From Escherichia phage VEc20, in the sequence record MN022785.1: DNA of 64,000 nt; one strand, 5' to 3'. The translations under genes and the position numbers were made by a program. This document shows, one piece after another, positions 6,525 to 49,490 of this stretch; the first letter of the stretch is position 1, and each line of letters opens with the position of its first letter. The notes beneath the pieces are model-generated. The model did no database searches. It was not told the DNA's origin and was given only the letters and a program-made list of their open reading frames with translations.

Positions 6525-7028
6525 CTAGCTTACACGAACATTAATCACTGCGCTGCGAGGAACGACAGAATACTCTCCAGCATGAACTACATTAAGAAGT
6601 TCAACGCCATCTTCAATCCACTGGTCAGTTACCCAACCGCCGACCGGATTCGCGAATGGACGACGAATGTAAACTGCCTTACACAACAAATCAGTCGGGT
6701 CTTCAATTTTTTCAACTGGTGCCACATACATAGAAACTAAATCCATATCAATATGGGATTTTTCCTGTTCTTCTTTTTCAATTTCTGTCAATAGACTAAA
6801 ATCTTTTTCATAAATAAGAAGCGATGACACCATTCCATAATAGTTTCTAATTTCAATATACATCATGCCGATAAGAATTCCGCTATTAACACTAATAACA
6901 GTAAAAGGATATCCGCCAGTTAAAGCAAGAAGTTCACAAAACTTATTATGAGCTGTATTAGACAGTACCGGAAAATTCTTAATTTCATCAAATTTTTTCA
7001 ATTGATAAACAGCATTATTTTTAATCAT
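6525..7028 (-). CDS. hypothetical protein, paralog of ORF 5960..6451 (shared C-terminal domain)
   Basis: 167 aa; C-terminus DQWIEDGVELLNVVHAGEYSVVP vs DQWVEDGVKLYNAVFLGTYKVIP. Confidence 0.55.
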   Translation of the reverse strand: MIKNNAVYQLKKFDEIKNFPVLSNTAHNKFCELLALTGGYPFTVISVNSGILIGMMYIEIRNYYGMVSSLLIYEKDFSLLTEIEKEEQEKSHIDMDLVSMYVAPVEKIEDPTDLLCKAVYIRRPFANPVGGWVTDQWIEDGVELLNVVHAGEYSVVPRSAVINVRVS

Positions 7029-7038
7029 AATTTTCTCT

Positions 7039-7539
7039 TTAATCTAAGGTAATAAAGCCTTTTAATTCGGCATGCGATTTGCGGAACATTACTTGATGTC
7101 CGCCAATGATAACTTGGTCATCTGGTACTTCGTATACAGCAAGATAAAATCCTTTCGAAGCTAATTCTTCACGCTCTTCTCGTGTGAACCATCTCATCAT
7201 ATCATATTCGCTAGCGAAAGCAAAATGATAAAGAGCTATAAACCATCCTGGAATATGATATTCTACTCCAACATAATCTTTCTTGAACTTAGTATTAATT
7301 ACTATATTAGCGTTTTTAACTAATAGTTTATCTTCGTGTGGTAAAGGAATTCTTTTATTATTATCGCTATGATGCATAAAATTAGGTCTGTCATAACCTA
7401 CGTGTAATAGCCACTCTTCGCTCCATGAATCTATTATACTCCTGTACGGCGTTATTTGAACACAAAGATTTCGACGTATTGTTATAGCATCTTCATAATC
7501 AAGAATACTAAACGATGATTCAACACGATAAATTTTCAT
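7039..7539 (-). CDS. hypothetical protein
   Basis: ORF track 7039..7578; start trimmed to ATG at 7539 with GAGGA RBS because the 5' extension overlaps promoter. Confidence 0.5.
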   Translation of the reverse strand: MKIYRVESSFSILDYEDAITIRRNLCVQITPYRSIIDSWSEEWLLHVGYDRPNFMHHSDNNKRIPLPHEDKLLVKNANIVINTKFKKDYVGVEYHIPGWFIALYHFAFASEYDMMRWFTREEREELASKGFYLAVYEVPDDQVIIGGHQVMFRKSHAELKGFITLD

Positions 7540-13826: not shown

Positions 13827-14298
13827 TTGTTTTACCTAAAACAACAGTAGGAGCATCATCAAATTCATGAATTTTGAGCAAATTTGGATGTAAACTATTC
13901 CATACAGAAGAAATAAAGTATGATAAAGCATCTTCACTCGCAATTATAAATTTATTTCCTTTATCTATTTTCCAACTATATACTGAATCGTACGAATAAA
14001 AAGATAAAGGTTTATCATTATATTGTTCTGCGCTAACATTAATGTATTCTGATTTAGTAAATGCTTCAATTGCTCTAAACGGAATATTTGGTACAGTTTC
14101 AATAATACCAATCTTTTTAAGTTTTATTTCAGCATCTTCTGGAACTGGCATTGAAACGAAATTTTCTACGAGATACATTGGGTCACAATAACCCTTATCA
14201 ATCATTACTGCTACAGTAATTGGAACATCTTTAGCAAATGACAAACTATTACTGCTAATATACATTTCAAACAAAATCGCTTCCATAATTTTCCTCAA
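13801..14298 (-). CDS. hypothetical protein
   Basis: 165-aa ORF. Confidence 0.55.
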
Positions 14299-14633
14299 TC
14301 ACAAGATGTAGATGAACAACTAGAATCACAAGAACTTCCACATGAATCGCCCGTCCACACATGAACAGGAACATTAGTATCATATGAATCAGAACTAGAC
14401 TGTGTATTCTGCGTATTAGATGATGTAGGTGTTGACCAACGCCAAGGATTTTTATAATATTCCTGGGCTTCTTCATAAGTCATAGTAACTGCTTCTACTG
14501 TTCCATCTCCCATATAAACATATTCAACTACAGTTAAAGGAAGGTAGTCATTTGAAATAGGAACTACACCTTCTCCGGGAGTTGTAGAGAAAAAATCCGT
14601 AAAGAAACTTTTAAACCAATTAAAGATAAACAT
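14295..14633 (-). CDS. small membrane-anchored protein with Cys/Ser-rich C-terminal tail
   Basis: ORF track 14295..14678; start trimmed to ATG 14633 (TAATG overlap); hydrophobic N-terminus, tail [18 protein letters not shown]. Confidence 0.5.
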
Positions 14634-14845
14634 TACAAAAAGCCTCTTTGAAATTCGACTCTTTGAAATCCACCCCAATCAGTGTATCGCATTTCAGCAT
14701 TGAACTCGACTGAACCATCTGCATGCATCATGAATGAATGCGTGACGATATCACAATCCCAGCTTTTCATACCCCATTTATCAGAGATAGCTTTATCAAG
14801 AACCTTCTGGAGGTCTTCATTTGGTTTAATCCAACGATTTAACAT
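14633..14845 (-). CDS. hypothetical protein
   Basis: 70-aa ORF with GAGGAG RBS. Confidence 0.55.
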   Translation of the reverse strand: MLNRWIKPNEDLQKVLDKAISDKWGMKSWDCDIVTHSFMMHADGSVEFNAEMRYTDWGGFQRVEFQRGFL

Positions 14846-14870
14846 AGTGTTCTCCTCTATAAGATATTTT

Positions 14871-14902
14871 TATTATACCACACTCATTTTGACATGTAAA
14901 CC
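14871..14902 (-). promoter_or_regulatory. T4 early-type promoter (GTTTAC, 18 nt, TGGTATAAT)
   Basis: perfect extended -10 on minus strand upstream of ORF 14633..14845. Confidence 0.55.
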
Positions 14903-14914
14903 ATAAAATGAAAA

Positions 14915-14936
14915 AAGGAATCCCGGAGGATTCCTT
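14915..14936 (-). terminator. rho-independent terminator after soc
   Basis: 9-bp stem aaggaatcc/ggattcctt, loop cgga, followed on minus strand by UUUUUCAUUUU. Confidence 0.6.
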
Positions 14937-14943
14937 AAATTAT

Positions 14944-15180
14944 TTAACCATCTATTGATGTAGGCGTAAACATTGCAGCATTCTTAGTTTTCCAGTCAGC
15001 TGCATCAGAAACTACAGTAGAATATGCTGCCTTTTCAGAAGGAAAGGTCTGATAATGAGAATCTGCAATACGATGCTCGTTAGAATAGATTTCAAACGGA
15101 ACAGAAACTTCCATACCTTTAACTTCTTTGCCTTCACCTGCTGGATGAGTAAAGGTCTTTATATTAACGAAACCACCCAT
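14944..15180 (-). CDS. soc: small outer capsid protein Soc
   Basis: 78-aa ORF; VNIKTF and HYQTFPSEKAAYSTV segments recognisable as Soc. Confidence 0.8.
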   Translation of the reverse strand: MGGFVNIKTFTHPAGEGKEVKGMEVSVPFEIYSNEHRIADSHYQTFPSEKAAYSTVVSDAADWKTKNAAMFTPTSIDG

Positions 15181-15210
15181 AATAAACTCCTTTATTGTTT
15201 AATTACAGGT

Positions 15211-15218
15211 GTATTTAT
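15211..15218 (-). promoter_or_regulatory. T4 late promoter TATAAATA upstream of soc
   Basis: plus strand tatttata = revcomp TATAAATA, about 30 nt upstream of soc ATG. Confidence 0.6.
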
Positions 15219-15389
15219 ATCAATCTTCAATGAAAACTTGTGCCAGGAATTCATGCTCATCTTGAATTTGTTTATATAAAGCCATTACAGCATTTATGTT
15301 AGAGCTATCTACTTTAAGTTGATAAGCATACCACTCATGTAAATTAATTAAAGCTTTTTGACGTCTAATAAATTCTTCTTTGGATATTT

Positions 15390-15599
15390 TCATTTTGAAT
15401 GCTCTATAATTAATTTTAAGGCTTCTTCACTGACAAAAATTTCGTCAGGACCTTTTTCTACAACCCAATCAACCCAATCAACCATACGAAGCTGATTAGA
15501 AAAGAGCTCACATACGAGCTCCTTGTCATAATCTTTAAATAGCTGGTCAATACGCTTCTTGCGGGCTTTCTTGAGCTGGCGTTTATTTAAACGAGCCAT
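15390..15599 (-). CDS. hypothetical basic protein
   Basis: 69-aa ORF between soc and 56. Confidence 0.5.
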   Translation of the reverse strand: MARLNKRQLKKARKKRIDQLFKDYDKELVCELFSNQLRMVDWVDWVVEKGPDEIFVSEEALKLIIEHSK

Positions 15600-16117
15600 T
15601 AATATCCTCTGTCTTGACGAGCGAAGTTTTCAGCATTTTTCAGATAATAAAGTTTAAAGATTTCCTCAGCTGACATTCCAAGAGCAATGAATTTATTCAT
15701 GAAAAAGTGAAATTGATCAATCAGTTCAAATTTAATTTCAAGCTGATCTTCGGGAGATAAATCTTGAATTTTCTTGGATTGCATTTCAGAATAACGTTTC
15801 TTCCAAGGTTTCCATACGGCAGAAGCTTCTTTTTCACCATTACTCATACCACCAAGAGAAGTATATAGCTCGCGAGTTTCATCTGCGATATAATCGTCTT
15901 GGTTTCGCAACCAAGCAAGAACTTCTCCTGCAGTTTCAAGTGAATCAGGATGACGATTTGTTTCTGGTTTATCATTAGCCAAACGAATCTGTAAAGACCG
16001 CTGCATATCAAGCATAACCTGCAATGGGTCAATATTGTGCATAATATTCTCAGCATATGCACGAGTTGCTTTATCAACACCTTCGATCAAATGAGCACAT
16101 TCATTAAAGTGAGCCAT
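15599..16117 (-). CDS. 56: dCTP pyrophosphatase gp56 (MazG-like)
   Basis: ORF track 15599..16210; true start taken as MAHFNECAHLIEG at 16117 with GGA RBS. Confidence 0.85.
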   Translation of the reverse strand: MAHFNECAHLIEGVDKATRAYAENIMHNIDPLQVMLDMQRSLQIRLANDKPETNRHPDSLETAGEVLAWLRNQDDYIADETRELYTSLGGMSNGEKEASAVWKPWKKRYSEMQSKKIQDLSPEDQLEIKFELIDQFHFFMNKFIALGMSAEEIFKLYYLKNAENFARQDRGY

Positions 16118-16188
16118 TATTTTTCCTTTCAATTCATGGATTAATAGATTAATTATACAATAAATATATAAAGCAATAAGGAGGACAT

Positions 16189-16389
16189 ATGGTACAAAAA
16201 TTAATGGCACTTGTTAATGCCATAAAAGGTAATAAGAAACGTATAGCTTTTACTATTTCTGCTATGATAGGAATTTTACTTTGGAATTTTGTTCTATCAC
16301 CTGTTGCAATTGCACATGGTATTAATATTCCAGTAGTTACTCTTGATACATTCGTAGATTTAGCATTTGCTTTAGTTGGGTTAATTTAA
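16189..16389 (+). CDS. small hydrophobic protein on plus strand (66 aa)
   Basis: canonical SD AAGGAGG 4-5 nt before ATG; hydrophobic segments; divergent from flanking genes. Confidence 0.45.
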   Translation: MVQKLMALVNAIKGNKKRIAFTISAMIGILLWNFVLSPVAIAHGINIPVVTLDTFVDLAFALVGLI

Positions 16390-17414
16390 ATCTTGGCATA
16401 TTTAGATAACCGCATTTTAGCCATCAACCCCTGGGCAATATTATTTTTCATATATTCCATAATTTGTTCAGGGGTTGCACCTTCCTTTCTAATCATATCA
16501 TTAACATCTTTTGATTTCCAGGGAGATTTATCCCAAAACATAACCCTTTCTCCTGCATCAACTAATTTAGTCATTCGCTTAATAGTGTCAGGATGACGAG
16601 GTTCATTATCTAAAACCCACACACGTCTATCTTTAAATGGAACAACTTCTAGGTCTAATTGACCACCTGTAATAGCTATACCATTTTCAATAAAAAGTGA
16701 ATCTATAGGTCCTTCTAGAACATATACATCACCATCTTTAACTCGTTCGACTCCATAGATTTTTGTTGCCTCAGGATAAGCTTTGATGGTGATATATTTT
16801 TGAGGAGCATCTTTCTTTAATGCACGTCCTTGAAAAGACTCAGCTTTTCCATTAGCATTATAAATTGGAATAACAAGACGAGGCTCAGGTATTTCCTTTT
16901 TATATGTTCCTGGTGCTATACTATTAACTAATTTAGGCCATTCAGTTGTAAACCAAAGATATTTCCATTTATCCTTTGGAATACAACGAGCTTTTACGTA
17001 TTTTATAATTGGATGGTCTTCCGCCAATTTATCTAGTCTAATGCATGACGGAAGAGATTTAATTATTTTCTTCTCAGGTTGTTTAGGAAGTTCTTTAGGT
17101 TTTTCTACTGGACGACTTTTACCTTTTTCTTTTCTTATTTCAAAGATATACTCACGATATAAATCAGGTTCAAACTCCTTTAAATATATTCCGATTGGTG
17201 CATGATAGTTACAGTTATAACAATGAATATTTCCTTCATTATTATCACCATAATACCATCCACGAGCTTTATTCTGGTCGGTTTTTGAATCTCCACAAAC
17301 AGGGCATCTAAACCGCAATTTAAAAGTTGAACTATTATTTACTTGTGTGAATTTAGGTAAATGAGCTAATGCACGATACGCAAACTCATTATCAATCCAA
17401 GGTATTGATGACAT
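16386..17414 (-). CDS. 61: DNA primase gp61
   Basis: 342-aa ORF; zinc-ribbon CPVCGDSK...CYNC and TOPRIM-like core; recognisable as T4 gp61. Confidence 0.9.
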   Translation of the reverse strand: MSSIPWIDNEFAYRALAHLPKFTQVNNSSTFKLRFRCPVCGDSKTDQNKARGWYYGDNNEGNIHCYNCNYHAPIGIYLKEFEPDLYREYIFEIRKEKGKSRPVEKPKELPKQPEKKIIKSLPSCIRLDKLAEDHPIIKYVKARCIPKDKWKYLWFTTEWPKLVNSIAPGTYKKEIPEPRLVIPIYNANGKAESFQGRALKKDAPQKYITIKAYPEATKIYGVERVKDGDVYVLEGPIDSLFIENGIAITGGQLDLEVVPFKDRRVWVLDNEPRHPDTIKRMTKLVDAGERVMFWDKSPWKSKDVNDMIRKEGATPEQIMEYMKNNIAQGLMAKMRLSKYAKI

Positions 17415-17416
17415 TT

Positions 17417-17581
17417 TTACTCTTCTTTTTCTTTAGATTCCTCTTTTTTCTTTTTAGGAATCTGCTCAGGACCTTTATTTACTACAGAGCCTGACGTTGT
17501 TCCAGTAGAGATATTTTCAGGATTACCACCTGAATCTCCAGCGACCATATCTTCTTTGATAAATTCTTTATATGTTTTCAT
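17417..17581 (-). CDS. hypothetical protein (61.1 position), 54 aa
   Basis: hand-translated MKTYKEFIKEDMVAGD...; stop adjacent to gene 61 start. Confidence 0.4.
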   Translation of the reverse strand: MKTYKEFIKEDMVAGDSGGNPENISTGTTSGSVVNKGPEQIPKKKKEESKEKEE

Positions 17582-17582
17582 A

Positions 17583-17939
17583 TTAACCTCTATTCATAAA
17601 AGCATTAAAAATTTGGTCATCAATAGATGGTGCAGTAATATTTTCTGCATCATTTAGCAAATCATTAATTTCATCAGATAGCATAACACATGTACCTTTA
17701 TTTCCTGTAATTGTTACTGCGCAATTACGAACGTTTTCTTTATTAAATTTTAGGTTAATATTTTCGTAATGAAAATCCTTTAATGCTGAATATATTTTTA
17801 AAATAAAATTGTCTTTTACTACAATAAACCCAACCTCACTATTAAAACGTGGTTCATGGAAACTGTAATAAACCTTTTCATCTATAAAATCGTATGAAAT
17901 TTTTTCCATTTTTAAATATGAAAATTCAGAACTATACAT
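17583..17939 (-). CDS. hypothetical protein (61.2 position)
   Basis: 118-aa ORF. Confidence 0.55.
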   Translation of the reverse strand: MYSSEFSYLKMEKISYDFIDEKVYYSFHEPRFNSEVGFIVVKDNFILKIYSALKDFHYENINLKFNKENVRNCAVTITGNKGTCVMLSDEINDLLNDAENITAPSIDDQIFNAFMNRG

Positions 17940-17951
17940 ACTAACCTCTAA

Positions 17952-18245
17952 TTACTCACCTACCACTTCAGCGATGATATTTTTGTTATTAAAGTTTTTA
18001 TCGCAATACAGAACATAATTATACTACATTACACCACCAGACTTAAGCTGTTTTTGCACTTCGGCTTTCATTTCAGGACGATCGCGCTCAACGATATTCA
18101 TAATATCTGCTTCAATTTGAGTTTCAACCTCAGTCTGATCAGCAGTCATAGACCATTCGCACAAATCTTTATCATAACCTGCCATAGCAGGCTGAGCAGC
18201 ACAAGAAGATAAAGCAAAAATTGTAGCAAAGATAAATTTTTTCAT
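17952..18245 (-). pseudogene. sp: spackle (61.3) homologue interrupted by in-frame TAG at codon 74
   Basis: 73-aa ORF with signal peptide ends at TAG (18024-18026); 23 more in-frame sense codons (YNYVLYCDKNFNNKNIIAEVVGE) run to TAA just before next gene's RBS; total 97 codons. Confidence 0.55.
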
Positions 18246-18271
18246 GATAATCTCCTCAGCAGTTTATGTTT

Positions 18272-18303
18272 ATATAGTATCTCAATTTCCAACAAAAGTA
18301 AAC
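18272..18303 (-). promoter_or_regulatory. T4 early-type promoter upstream of spackle homologue
   Basis: GTTTAC, 18 nt, TACTAT. Confidence 0.45.
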
Positions 18304-18305
18304 AG

Positions 18306-18563
18306 TTATTTTAAAACTTCTGCGTAATCACATGTTACAAACTGTTTCTCTAGCTTAACGATCTTACGAAAATACCTTTTACACTGACGAATCTGTCGCT
18401 TCGTAGGACGTACAGCAAACTTAATAAATTCAACTCGACCAAATGGAGGACTTTCTTCTGCTGGAATATCTAACACCAATTCCCACGTATCTGAAATAAG
18501 TGCTTTGAATTGCGTATTTTTCCTGACGTTATACGGAGTAGGTTTAAATAAAACAATATGCAT
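18306..18563 (-). CDS. hypothetical protein (61.4 position)
   Basis: ORF track 18306..18605; start trimmed to internal ATG to avoid overlap with dmd. Confidence 0.45.
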   Translation of the reverse strand: MHIVLFKPTPYNVRKNTQFKALISDTWELVLDIPAEESPPFGRVEFIKFAVRPTKRQIRQCKRYFRKIVKLEKQFVTCDYAEVLK

Positions 18564-18564
18564 A

Positions 18565-18747
18565 TTATCCTCGGCAATCCACTTCACACACTTTCTTGTC
18601 ATCAATGAAAGCTTTAACTAATGCTTTATTAACTTCGGCATATTGAGTAGTAGCCCATTGAACGTCATCTTTCATCATTGTAGTTTCTTTAGTAAACATG
18701 CTTTCATTCTTAAACCACCCCATAAAAACTACCTTTACCAATTCCAT
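18565..18747 (-). CDS. dmd: Dmd (61.5), inhibitor of host RnlA/LsoA toxins
   Basis: 60-aa ORF immediately downstream of gene 41; size and position match. Confidence 0.7.
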   Translation of the reverse strand: MELVKVVFMGWFKNESMFTKETTMMKDDVQWATTQYAEVNKALVKAFIDDKKVCEVDCRG

Positions 18748-18805
18748 AACAATCTCCTCATTTAACCAACAAGACTACTATACCATAGTCTTGTCAGCTT
18801 GTAAA

Positions 18806-20233
18806 CTAAAATTTTAATTCATTTGCCAAAGCATCTAACTGAGCTCGAGTGGATTCATTTCTTTGATAGCGATTCTGCTCAGCCTGAATCTGTTGTGAAC
18901 CTGCTACTTCGTTCACTTCAGTTGGAGTAGAATCTTGTTCAATTTCTACCCATTTTTGATTTCCTTTTTGAACACCCATCAAAAACTTATTCCATTTGTT
19001 CTTATCACCATATCGTGATTTGATTTGCTTAATGAGTTGTTGTTCAGCAGCTGCTAGCTCCTCGGTTTCAATGACCGCAAGCATAAAATCGGCTGTTGCT
19101 GGAAGACCAGCAGATTCTGCAATATCGCTCATGTTAACATCAGAAGAATCCCAAGCCTGTTTACCAACCTGTGCTGCAGTCCAAAGAACAGTTTCGGTTT
19201 CAACAGCAAGAGCACGCAATTCCTCTGCAATAGCTTTAACAGTTGTGTAACTATTTTCTGAATAAACTCTAATGCGGCAAGATTTACAAATACCTAGATA
19301 GTCGACAATAATGATTGTTGGAACAAAATTCTTCTTGAGCTTCAATTCGTTTAAAAGTGATCGAAATGTATTAGCGTCTGCTCCACCAGTAGGATATTGC
19401 TTAACGATTAAACGACCAAGGGTAGATTTCTCACGCCATTTTTCCATTTTTCCTTTATATTCAGCGTAAGAAATATGCCCATCATCAATGTCATCAAGAG
19501 AAACATCAAGCATGTTAGCGTCAATACGCTTAGCACAGACTTCTTCTGCCATTTCCATGGAAATGTAAAGAACGTTATGACCAAGCTGCAAATAATCTGC
19601 TGCTAATGAACAAAGTCCTAATGATTTACCGACGTTAACGCCAGCCATTAAAACGTTCAGTGTTCCAGTCTCAGCTCCGCCTTTAGTAATTTTGTTTAGA
19701 ATTCTGAGTTTAAATGGAACCTTACGAGCTTTATTCATATAAGATAGCCAACGTGCTTCATAGTCATCCATCCAATCATGGCCAACGTAGCTATCAAATG
19801 AAATTGATAATGCTTGGCGCATGATGTCAGGAATAGCACCTACATCTGGCATTTTCTTATTTCGTTTTTCTGGAGGAAGCTCAGCATTGGTTTGAATTTC
19901 GATTATTTTAGACGTAGCATTAAACATCGCCCTTTGCTGAACATATTTTTCTGTTTCTTTTATTAACCAGCTGTGGTCTTCTGGAGAATCAGCCAGTTTT
20001 GAAATAAGTGTTTTTACACCAGAATATTCTGTTTCAGTAAATGAACTATTTTCTAATGCAACATTTAACGCATTAATAGATGGAACGCTATGATACTCAT
20101 TAACATGAGATTTAATTAATTTGAATGTATTTTTAGCTGGACCACTTTCAAAATATTCTGAATCCATATATGGCCAAACTTTTGAAAAATAAGCTTGATC
20201 AAATATGAGATGAGAAAGAATAATTTCTACCAC
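18806..20233 (-). CDS. 41: replicative DNA helicase gp41 (DnaB-like)
   Basis: 475-aa ORF; Walker A GVNVGKS; size matches T4 gp41. Confidence 0.9.
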   Translation of the reverse strand: MVEIILSHLIFDQAYFSKVWPYMDSEYFESGPAKNTFKLIKSHVNEYHSVPSINALNVALENSSFTETEYSGVKTLISKLADSPEDHSWLIKETEKYVQQRAMFNATSKIIEIQTNAELPPEKRNKKMPDVGAIPDIMRQALSISFDSYVGHDWMDDYEARWLSYMNKARKVPFKLRILNKITKGGAETGTLNVLMAGVNVGKSLGLCSLAADYLQLGHNVLYISMEMAEEVCAKRIDANMLDVSLDDIDDGHISYAEYKGKMEKWREKSTLGRLIVKQYPTGGADANTFRSLLNELKLKKNFVPTIIIVDYLGICKSCRIRVYSENSYTTVKAIAEELRALAVETETVLWTAAQVGKQAWDSSDVNMSDIAESAGLPATADFMLAVIETEELAAAEQQLIKQIKSRYGDKNKWNKFLMGVQKGNQKWVEIEQDSTPTEVNEVAGSQQIQAEQNRYQRNESTRAQLDALANELKF

Positions 20234-39141: not shown

Positions 39142-39175
39142 GTTAATAATACCATAGTTTGAACTCGTTGTAAAC
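39142..39175 (-). promoter_or_regulatory. T4 early-type promoter (GTTTAC, 18 nt, TGGTATTAT)
   Basis: promoter half of a promoter + stem-loop module. Confidence 0.5.
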
Positions 39176-39256
39176 AACTTTGTGAAAAATATTTTAGGGA
39201 ATGATAAGAAAGGAACGATAACTTAGAATGGTAATATACAGAATGTGAGAAAGAAA

Positions 39257-39270
39257 GGCCCAGAGGGCCC
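39257..39270 (-). terminator. short GC stem-loop followed by U-rich tract
   Basis: ggcc..ggcc stem, UUUCUUUCUC downstream on minus strand. Confidence 0.35.
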
Positions 39271-39273
39271 GTC

Positions 39274-39597
39274 TTAATCTTCTATGATATCTCTATCATA
39301 TCCAAGTGAAATGAGAGTTTCTTTGAAGTGTTTAATGTTCTTTTGTCTAGAATCATTAATAAAAATGACTGGATAACGAATGTTAAGAGATGTGAATCCA
39401 GCGCGTTTAGCAAGAGATACAATCAGCGGACGATCATACTCAATCTTACCATTATTTGTAAGAACTTTATAGAAAGTAAAAGGAGCATTGAGCTCCTTTA
39501 GAAGTTTTGTAACTGATTGACATCCAGGACAACGACCTACTTCATCTGGAATTCCATAGACTTCAATCTTATTCTTTAAGTTCGAGTTTTGTTCCAC
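39274..39597 (-). CDS. glutaredoxin/NrdH-like redoxin (CPGC), start codon uncertain
   Basis: C-terminal 100 residues of the 150-aa ORF carry CPGC; no in-frame ATG after upstream ORF stop, GTG at 39597 with AAGGAA RBS proposed. Confidence 0.5.
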   Translation of the reverse strand: MEQNSNLKNKIEVYGIPDEVGRCPGCQSVTKLLKELNAPFTFYKVLTNNGKIEYDRPLIVSLAKRAGFTSLNIRYPVIFINDSRQKNIKHFKETLISLGYDRDIIED

Positions 39598-39882: not shown

Positions 39883-40098
39883 TTAAGCCTTTTTATCAAG
39901 AACAGAATTCAGCTTGTTAGTAATTTTATCCAGACGCTCATTGAACTCGCTAGAAGATAAACCCTTTTCTGGAGAAATCAAACTAATCACGAAAAATATA
40001 GCAATAAAAGGAATAAGGAAAATAGCTCCAACTGCCATAAACAGAAAGAATGTTACAGTTGTAAGAAAATCAGCTAAACCTTTACGAAATTTATACAT
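39883..40098 (-). CDS. small membrane protein
   Basis: 71-aa ORF with two hydrophobic segments. Confidence 0.5.
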   Translation of the reverse strand: MYKFRKGLADFLTTVTFFLFMAVGAIFLIPFIAIFFVISLISPEKGLSSSEFNERLDKITNKLNSVLDKKA

Positions 40099-43828: not shown

Positions 43829-44002
43829 GGTTTAACCCCGAAGCTTATTAAGTTCTTCATAATCAATCCAGGATTCTAATCCTGATGGCAAATCAGATTC
43901 AATTTCCCAAAGAAGTTCTTCAATTTTATGAAGACGATCTAGTTCTTCGGCTGGAATAGTAACCATTGACGGAGTTCTTGATACATTAATATCGTAAATC
44001 AT
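43829..44002 (-). CDS. hypothetical small protein (57 aa)
   Basis: hand-translated MIYDINVSRTPSMVTIPAEELDRLHKIEELLWEI... Confidence 0.3.
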
Positions 44003-44004
44003 AT

Positions 44005-44220
44005 TTACCCCAATTTAACCATACAATCGCCGTATTTCCACTTAGAAATAGACTTTTCACCGTTAGAATAATAAACTTCGAGTTTAGCACGATTATTTTT
44101 AATTTGAATAACCTTGGCTGTCATCAAAGTTCCATACCCATAATAAACTGCAACTTCATCACCTACATATACCGCGCTTCCGCGGTAATCATGAATATAG
44201 TCAGTTCCTTCGAGCATCAT
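44005..44220 (-). CDS. hypothetical protein
   Basis: 71-aa ORF. Confidence 0.5.
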   Translation of the reverse strand: MMLEGTDYIHDYRGSAVYVGDEVAVYYGYGTLMTAKVIQIKNNRAKLEVYYSNGEKSISKWKYGDCMVKLG

Positions 44221-44480
44221 TTAAAGTATTCCCGCAATTGATCAAATCCACCAATATGACTTCCATCAGGAGCAAATACCTGAGGCATTGTCAAGCCTAT
44301 TTGAGTATCACGACCTAGTTTAGTCAGAAGCTCAGCGATTTTCTCATCATCAAAAACACCTTTTTCCGGCATAATATTGATAAATTCAAACGGCTGTTTC
44401 TTCACAGTCAAAAGACGTTTTGCATTATCACAATACACACATTTATGGATGTTGCTATCATAACCATATACTTTAAACAT
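44217..44480 (-). CDS. nrdC: thioredoxin/glutaredoxin NrdC
   Basis: 87-aa ORF with CVYC active site; matches T4 thioredoxin. Confidence 0.85.
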   Translation of the reverse strand: MFKVYGYDSNIHKCVYCDNAKRLLTVKKQPFEFINIMPEKGVFDDEKIAELLTKLGRDTQIGLTMPQVFAPDGSHIGGFDQLREYFK

Positions 44481-48183: not shown

Positions 48184-49089
48184 TTAAGATTTAAGTAAAT
48201 CAACAATTTTAATTAACTTTTCACGCTCAGATTTAGCTTTACTACTCAATCCAGATAGTCTGAAAATTTCATCATCATATTGTTGAATAGAAATATTCAG
48301 CTCTTCAATCTGTTTATTAAAATAATCAATTTGTTCAGAATGTTTTTCGTTACTACGAACTGGTACAGGTTTTGTAGGCAATTTAGTTGAACTGGATTCA
48401 TCCGGGCGATAAATTAAAATACAATTTGAACCAATCGGGCATTTAGCACCAGACACATATTCTAGTGTTCCAGCTTCTTTTAAAACTTCAAAAGCTAAAC
48501 GGAGATGATGACCCATATTGACATAATCTGTAGAGTGAGCTCTGATATAATAATCATCTCCACGAGTACTAAATTTAAAGCATTTAAGGTCTTCTGTATT
48601 ATTAGTTTTAAAAATCATTTGTTTATCTAGACCTTTAGCTAATCGAGCACCTAATGCTAATAATCGTCGTTGATTTTCCCATAAATCCGCAATCATTTGA
48701 TCGAATGACAATTTCGGCATTAGTCGACCATAAAGGTCATATCCTTTATTATAATTGCGAAGAATTTCACTCGCGTTAATACGAGACAACGCTCCAATTT
48801 TATTAAGGGCTTTCATGATGCGATTAGATAAACTCATTCCAGACCCGTTTGTTCGCTGTAAATGTTTTTCTAATCCAAATCCAATATCAACTTTAAATTT
48901 ATCTAAAATTTTGGCATGAACATCTCTGTCAATAACATTCAAATCCAAAGTTGGGTTAAATCTATGAAAAAATTTATCTGGCTCTCCACGACGAAGTACA
49001 GTCCATTCATTCATCATTTTTTTATTAACTAAAGATTTAATTACTGCATTGACATTATTAATTACTACTGACATATTTTCCTCACTCAA
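48184..49089 (-). CDS. paralog-family protein with C-terminal coiled coil (member 4 of 4)
   Basis: 301 aa; motif RRLLALGARLAKGLDKQ. Confidence 0.5.
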   Translation of the reverse strand: MSEENMSVVINNVNAVIKSLVNKKMMNEWTVLRRGEPDKFFHRFNPTLDLNVIDRDVHAKILDKFKVDIGFGLEKHLQRTNGSGMSLSNRIMKALNKIGALSRINASEILRNYNKGYDLYGRLMPKLSFDQMIADLWENQRRLLALGARLAKGLDKQMIFKTNNTEDLKCFKFSTRGDDYYIRAHSTDYVNMGHHLRLAFEVLKEAGTLEYVSGAKCPIGSNCILIYRPDESSSTKLPTKPVPVRSNEKHSEQIDYFNKQIEELNISIQQYDDEIFRLSGLSSKAKSEREKLIKIVDLLKS

Positions 49090-49490
49090 TTTTCAATTTT
49101 ACTAAATACGCAGAATATAATGGAAAAGACTATATAAGCACCACACACAGATTGAACTAATACCATTCCAAAGAACCAAACAATATTATCAAACCATGTC
49201 TGTTTTACGTCGAAAGGACGTAAACTTACAGTAATATTATCACCTTTTTCTATTGAAGAATACATCTCCGGTGAAATATATTCGCTAAATCTATAACCGT
49301 CTTTGAGTTCATATACAGCAATAAACGATAAACTAGACCCCTTTCCTTGAGTTCCTGTAAGGGTATTAACTACAGTAACATCATAATCTTTATAATGCAT
49401 ATAATCATTAATAGCATAATAACCATATGCAACTACTACACATAAACAGCATATCAATAAATTCAATCTTTTAATTATCAACTGTTTCAT
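49086..49490 (-). CDS. membrane protein
   Basis: 134-aa ORF with N- and C-terminal transmembrane segments. Confidence 0.55.
   Translation of the reverse strand: MKQLIIKRLNLLICCLCVVVAYGYYAINDYMHYKDYDVTVVNTLTGTQGKGSSLSFIAVYELKDGYRFSEYISPEMYSSIEKGDNITVSLRPFDVKQTWFDNIVWFFGMVLVQSVCGAYIVFSIIFCVFSKIEN

Follow-up and report, generated by a model that had tools for sequence, protein, structure and literature searches.

Within the 64,000-nt stretch of Escherichia phage VEc20 analysed here (sequence record MN022785.1, hereafter the window), an open reading frame with a signal peptide ends at a TAG codon and is followed by further sense codons in the same frame. This arrangement raises the question of whether the locus is a Spackle gene (sp, gene 61.3) that has been cut short, and by what. 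A preliminary description made from the sequence had left four options open, namely a nonsense mutation, a natural pseudogene, a read-through and a sequencing error. The evidence presented below favours a nonsense mutation, and a very recent one, and lends no support to programmed read-through. We consider it probable that the TAG represents a genuine, recent amber mutation of Gln74 that abolishes the function of the gene in non-suppressor hosts.

The sp reading frame occupies 17952-18245 on the minus strand, and its direct translation gave MKKFIFATIFALSSCAAQPAMAGYDKDLCEWSMTADQTEVETQIEADIMNIVERDRPEMKAEVQKQLKSGGVM, a stop, YNYVLYCDKNFNNKNIIAEVVGE and a second stop. The truncated ORF (18024..18245, minus strand), which was defined by the ORF list, the translation, the PF25676 profile and the deposited protein QDK04166.1, contains 73 sense codons (18245..18027) and then the premature amber codon at codon 74 (18026..18024), which reads 'cta' on the plus strand and was placed by alignment with relatives. 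The ribosome-binding site GAGGAG (18252..18257, minus strand) is intact in the sequence and identical in NBG2, PYps55T and KarlGJung. The signal peptide, encoded by codons 1-22 (MKKFIFATIFALSSCAAQPAMA; 18180..18245, minus strand), is also intact, with the mature T4 chain 7CN6 aligning to residues 23-97. Beyond the TAG lies the orphaned 3' part of sp (17955..18023, minus strand), which comprises 23 in-frame codons for residues 75-97, is identical to T4 Spackle at 23/23 positions, and includes the NYVLYC motif, Asn76, Cys81 and helix 5 (87-95). The only in-frame start codon in this part is a GTG near its end, so that separate translation would be impossible. The reading frame closes at the ancestral TAA (17952..17954, minus strand), the same end as that of the annotated sp CDSs of NBG2, PYps55T, KarlGJung and DalCa, just ahead of the AGAGG of the next gene (the complement of 17945-17949). 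The preliminary description had reported a signal-peptide ORF of 73 codons ending at TAG, 23 further in-frame codons, a TAA directly before AGAGG and a reconstructed length of 97 codons; all of these, coordinates included, proved to be correct.

With the TAG read as Gln, the 97-aa product was identical to T4 Spackle (PDB 6X6O, residues 1-97) at 95/97 positions (phmmer, E = 2e-61), and it also matched the T4 Spackle structures 6XC0 and 6XC1 and the mature chains 7CN6 and 7CN7. Position 74 in T4 Spackle is Gln. The reconstruction was identical to the protein P0035, the Sp of phages NBG2 and PYps55T. The family profile PF25676 (T4_Spackle) matched the 73-aa ORF with 110.6 bits (cutoff 27; E = 5.9e-32) over positions 1-73 of 96, and the 97-aa reconstruction with 152 bits over all 96 positions. 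The match to T4 Sp and to PF25676 thus supports the assignment to Spackle (61.3) proposed earlier, and the size of 97 codons that had been given for the T4 protein is borne out by a match spanning residues 1-97. It is this homology that led us to accept the split gene as real, as an open tail of 23 codons is by itself unremarkable in AT-rich DNA. T4 Spackle has a 22-residue secretory signal (PMC7650644); the putative signal peptide of VEc20 differs from that of T4 by a single substitution, A13S, and the mature PDB chain begins at residue 23.

The position of the gene agrees with its sequence. The neighbours of sp are T-even early genes (primase 61, small ORFs, 61.4, dmd and helicase 41), and the order of ORFs around it, with the cluster 41 - dmd - 61.4 - sp - ... 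- 61, matches the annotated genomes of NBG2, PYps55T, KarlGJung and DalCa. The window as a whole is a segment of a Tequatrovirus genome that begins near rIIA, and VEc20 is assigned, like PYps55T, to the species Tequatrovirus ecombl75. T4 Spackle (Sp, gp61.3, rIV; UniProt SPAC_BPT4) is the same gene and has the same place in the genome, with 61.4/dmd/41 on one side and the gene 61 cluster on the other. Compared with T4, VEc20 carries A13S and K53E, both of which it has in common with NBG2 and PYps55T, whereas translation in VEc20 halts at codon 74 and residues 74-97 are not made. Judged by sequence, position and signal peptide, the VEc20 gene is a member of the Spackle family. It lacks the family features that are tied to the C-terminal third, that is, the full domain, the disulfide partner and the gp5-binding helices, and is therefore best described as a truncated gene or pseudogene.

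The downstream neighbour on the minus strand (17583..17949; sequence and ORF list) consists of the AGAGG ribosome-binding site (17949..17945) and an intact 118-aa hypothetical gene (17939..17583, with its ATG at 17939..17937), which has full-length matches to CDSs of DalCa and NBG2 and no internal stop. The premature TAG has lengthened the distance from the last translated sp codon to this ATG from 12 nt to 85 nt, and any translational coupling between sp and the 118-aa gene would consequently be lost, which is speculative. No RNA structure occluding the ribosome-binding site of the 118-aa gene was predicted (z = +0.99). We considered and rejected T4 61.2 as the identity of the 118-aa gene; the 208-aa 61.2-type gene of many relatives is absent here. 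Many Tequatroviruses, including APTC-EC-2A (642-1268), have this extra 208-aa gene between sp and the 118-aa ORF, where it shows as two-piece matches spanning about 1,015 nt, the corresponding site in the window being the junction at 17940-17955. It is missing from the window, NBG2, PYps55T and DalCa. In APTC-EC-2A the 208-aa neighbour bears the name 'spackle protein' (UEP18305.1), apparently a mis-annotation.

Comparison with the relatives located the change at a single base. On the coding strand CAG (Gln74) has become TAG; the changed base is 18026, which is A on the plus strand and G in the relatives. The preliminary description had raised CAG as the codon to look for in homologues, and CAG is indeed present in the closest relatives, with Gln74 in T4. 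In a 321-nt alignment of the gene with the three closest relatives, the TAG codon was the sole difference from NBG2. In phage vB_EcoM_NBG2 (Sp, AWM12126.1) the gene and its flanks are identical to those of VEc20 save for base 18026, while in Yersinia phage PYps55T (Sp, QNJ50925.1) they differ at 18026 and at one upstream base; both phages have CAG at codon 74 and an annotated product of 97 aa. Over the 5,366 bp of 13977-19342, base 18026 was the only mismatch to NBG2, and outside this block the identity with NBG2 falls to 97-98%, the usual mosaic level. Over 24 kb, the best match was to another phage, DalCa, at 97.2%. The NBG2-identical block suggests a recently shared or exchanged segment, as is typical of T-even mosaicism, and on the alignments the lesion is a single GC->AT transition on an otherwise unchanged haplotype. 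As the 23 orphaned codons show no further change, there would have been no time for decay, indicating that the mutation is very recent.

The TAG allele was found in VEc20 alone. A 60-nt probe centred on the TAG matched none of 464 phage records at 60/60, and the best matches, which included T4, T2, T4T and RB27, reached 59/60. The exact 30-mer containing the TAG was absent from IMG/VR, where three contigs carry this 30-mer with another base at that position, and a 23-mer containing it had no match in JGI metagenome contigs or GTDB genome contigs. Among about 15 billion proteins, the exact 73-aa product occurred once, as QDK04166.1, "spackle periplasmic protein", of Escherichia phage VEc20, and a literature search found no publication on this phage. 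Down to 55% identity, the protein search yielded 18 clusters of full-length Sp, each of which retains the C-terminus (97 aa, or 107/108 aa with N-terminal extensions), and the NYVLYC motif is near-invariant across the homologues. The preliminary description had named homologues with the same end as the observation that would speak against a split gene; among the Sp clusters down to 55% identity, none ends at codon 73.

Several other short or unusual Sp-like proteins came up in these searches. A protein of the same length (P0019, 73 aa, from a 694-nt ENA contig) was rejected as an equivalent truncation, as about 24 residues are deleted from its interior and its C-terminus is retained. The deletion takes most of helix 2 and helix 3 and leaves the signal peptide intact, so the agreement in length with the VEc20 ORF is coincidental. 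Another protein (P0020, 129 aa, from a 639-nt ENA contig) consists of a segment resembling an ABC permease (PF00528) fused to the N-terminal third of Sp, in all likelihood an artefact of chimeric assembly or of gene calling. A third, P0046 in the T4 Sp cluster, has 80 aa and ends ...QYNYVLY just before Cys81; it stems from a 1,833-nt contig that is labelled Enterococcus faecalis and is not marked partial. It may represent another truncation of sp that arose independently, or else stem from contamination or from a faulty contig. Two partial T4 Sp fragments (P0031 and P0033) likewise carry the E. faecalis label, pointing to T4 contamination in the assemblies concerned.

What the truncation removes can be read from the published structures of the T4 protein. 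Mature Spackle (residues 23-97) is a five-helix bundle with helices at 26-34, 37-55, 57-70, 73-75 and 87-95 (PMC7650644), and it binds the lysozyme domain of gp5 mainly via helices 1, 4 and 5 (PMC7677548). Asn76 of Spackle forms bidentate hydrogen bonds to Leu186 of gp5, and Cys29 and Cys81 form a disulfide (PMC7677548). Gly322 of gp5 packs against Val94 at the C-terminus of Spackle helix 5, where the suppressor mutation G322D acts by a clash (PMC7650644). The sp product of VEc20 loses residues 74-97 and thereby most of helix 4, Asn76, Cys81, helix 5 and the C-terminal tail. Its 73-aa ORF encodes Cys29, while the Cys81 codon lies beyond the TAG, so that neither the disulfide nor the five-helix bundle would be complete (helix limits from PMC7650644). 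Loss of gp5 binding is expected on this comparison, and stable folding is probably lost too.

Genetic evidence from T4 points in the same direction. In the S12 spackle allele just the last nine residues are replaced by unrelated sequence, and the phage still has the sp mutant phenotype (PMC7677548). Together with the published interface, this allele leads us to predict that the truncated Sp of VEc20 would be unable to bind or inhibit the gp5 tail lysozyme. The classical sp/rIV alleles, such as Emrich's S12, likewise hit the C-terminal gp5-binding part in viable phage, and the same phenotype is expected here. The two alleles differ in kind, as S12 exchanges the last nine residues for unrelated sequence, whereas the VEc20 allele is a clean amber that removes 24 residues. 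They differ also in origin, S12 being a selected T4 laboratory mutant and the VEc20 allele standing in the deposited genome of a T4 relative.

These observations are consistent with the following course of events. A single C->T transition on the coding strand, possibly by a deamination-type GC->AT mechanism, would have turned CAG into TAG. In a non-suppressor host translation would end after residue 73, and cleavage of the signal peptide would leave a 51-residue periplasmic fragment (23-73) made up of helices 1-3 and the first residue of helix 4. Such a fragment would be without the parts that Sp requires for clamping the lysozyme domain of gp5, the tail-spike protein, and the phage should behave as Sp-null. 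Sp, the product of gene rIV, functions in superinfection exclusion together with Imm and in resistance to lysis from without and to premature collapse of lysis inhibition (PMC6832632). The expected phenotype of VEc20 would hence be lower resistance to lysis from without, earlier collapse of lysis inhibition (a rapid-lysis phenotype of the rIV type) and partial loss of superinfection exclusion. As overexpressed gp61.3 left the T4 titre unchanged in one study (PMC7650644), the size of any sp phenotype is uncertain. The genes imm, rI, e and rIIA were each mapped at full length and uninterrupted in the window; with imm, rI and e undamaged and sp dispensable, VEc20 should be viable. The allele may have been enriched during laboratory propagation, where r-type variants would easily be picked as large or clear plaques or in high-titre passaging. 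This predicted loss of function draws on the published T4 structures and on the S12 allele.

The readings that compete with a genuine loss-of-function mutation concern the sequence itself, the decoding of the TAG and the function of the shortened product. We think it unlikely that the TAG is a sequencing or consensus error, with a true base that gives CAG or a call at 18026 that reflects a sub-population, even though the TAG allele is known from one public record only and is a singleton difference in a 5.4-kb block that is otherwise identical to NBG2. T-even DNA with glucosyl-hydroxymethyl-cytosine can, moreover, disturb some sequencing chemistries. Against such an error, substitution errors are rare in a high-coverage consensus, and the rest of the window is of good quality. 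When the 213 annotated CDSs of DalCa and NBG2 were mapped by tblastn, about 120 distinct gene ends in the window were covered; no gene looked frameshifted, and in-frame stops appeared in only two, sp and the homologue of DalCa_083. The latter (43832-44026, minus strand) was rejected as a second broken gene, as its 56-aa ORF from the ATG at 44002 is intact; the annotation of DalCa_083 (DalCa 44232-44426) begins at a TTG ahead of the stop of the preceding gene, which produces an artefactual in-frame stop. This leaves sp as the only truly stop-interrupted gene of about 120 mapped, and with about 120 other genes clean, the consensus error rate must be very low. Since these genes are without spurious stops or frameshifts, a random base-calling error at 18026 becomes less likely, yet possible, and a random error that makes a stop in exactly one non-essential gene is likewise possible and not favoured.

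A conditional amber allele, in which UAG is decoded by a supE/glnV-type host suppressor, a phage suppressor tRNA or a near-cognate tRNA-Gln and enough full-length Sp results, appears less likely again. The 23 downstream codons are intact, as this reading would have it, and since the ancestral codon is Gln, a supE (glnV44) host would rebuild exact wild-type Sp at partial efficiency. T-even phages carry tRNA clusters, which lie outside this window; ARAGORN found no tRNA gene in the 64 kb. Efficient suppression throughout the phage is opposed by the normal use of TAG as a terminator: 9/119 mapped genes end in it, among them the essential gene 41 at a distance of about 780 nt. The RNA surrounding and following the sp TAG folded no better than shuffled sequence (z = +0.99), and the TAG is followed by U, an efficient termination context in E. 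coli. The features of a programmed recoding site were thus not seen, as the TAG occurred in 0/464 relatives, there was no stable RNA downstream and the window held no tRNA gene; with the TAG in no relative, it is not a conserved recoding site. Very improbable, in our view, is a working short form of Spackle, in which the 73-aa product would be neo- or sub-functionalised and the 3' remnant irrelevant. The signal peptide, the ribosome-binding site and helices 1-3 are intact, helix 1 supplies part of the gp5 interface, and in GenBank the 73-aa ORF bears no other label than 'spackle periplasmic protein'; however, no homologue of this length ends here, the segment lost is the most conserved half of the gp5 interface, and S12, altered in its last nine residues only, is already mutant. 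The allele is also a singleton with no sign of spread in phage records, IMG/VR, JGI metagenomes or GTDB. There is, finally, a slim chance that the loss or conditional expression of Spackle is adaptive and naturally selected in a wild T-even phage; a faster-lysing variant of the rIV type may then be favoured in its niche, or the allele may be expressed only in suppressor-carrying hosts. Were this so, the codon would amount to a natural on/off switch for superinfection exclusion and for the stability of lysis inhibition.

On the preferred reading, a recent amber mutation, a known gene has almost certainly been knocked out by an ordinary loss-of-function change, and no new biology is involved. 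The scientific weight of the case is small, as Spackle, its structure, its gp5 target and its loss-of-function alleles have been known for decades. Its practical side lies first in annotation. The public record appears to name the 73-aa stub "spackle periplasmic protein", a product name that gives no hint of truncation, and the entry should be flagged as truncated or as a pseudogene. Those who use VEc20, for instance in therapy, in cocktails or in work on lysis timing, should expect weaker resistance to lysis from without, earlier collapse of lysis inhibition and leakier superinfection exclusion. VEc20 and its Sp+ relatives NBG2 and PYps55T would form a natural near-isogenic pair at the sp locus for tests of Sp outside T4, and since the lost codon is Gln, a supE host would offer a clean conditional system.

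A promoter or terminator created by the mutation was also considered and rejected, the scan having shown no promoter-like site at the mutation and no terminator; a TATAAT just after the sp TAG is present in all relatives. The mapping of DalCa and NBG2 genes showed, in addition, how the gene content of the window differs from these two phages. The few CDSs without a match were accessory genes that are absent or divergent; the window lacks DalCa_047 (78 aa), DalCa_082 (106 aa), NBG2_055 (207 aa, located between genes 47 and a-gt) and NBG2_078 (102 aa). Such missing accessory genes are ordinary T-even presence/absence polymorphisms. Beside motA, the region at about 6528-7100 (minus strand) matched DalCa_010/NBG2_010 (182 aa) over 41% of the length at 62% identity and holds a divergent or replaced allele. 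At 39889-40098 and 49092-49490 (minus strand), two small ORFs read past the stops of the NBG2 CDSs 39150-39362 and 48330-48731, with GCT and AAT as the next codons, indicating that gene lengths differ between VEc20 and NBG2 at these two places.
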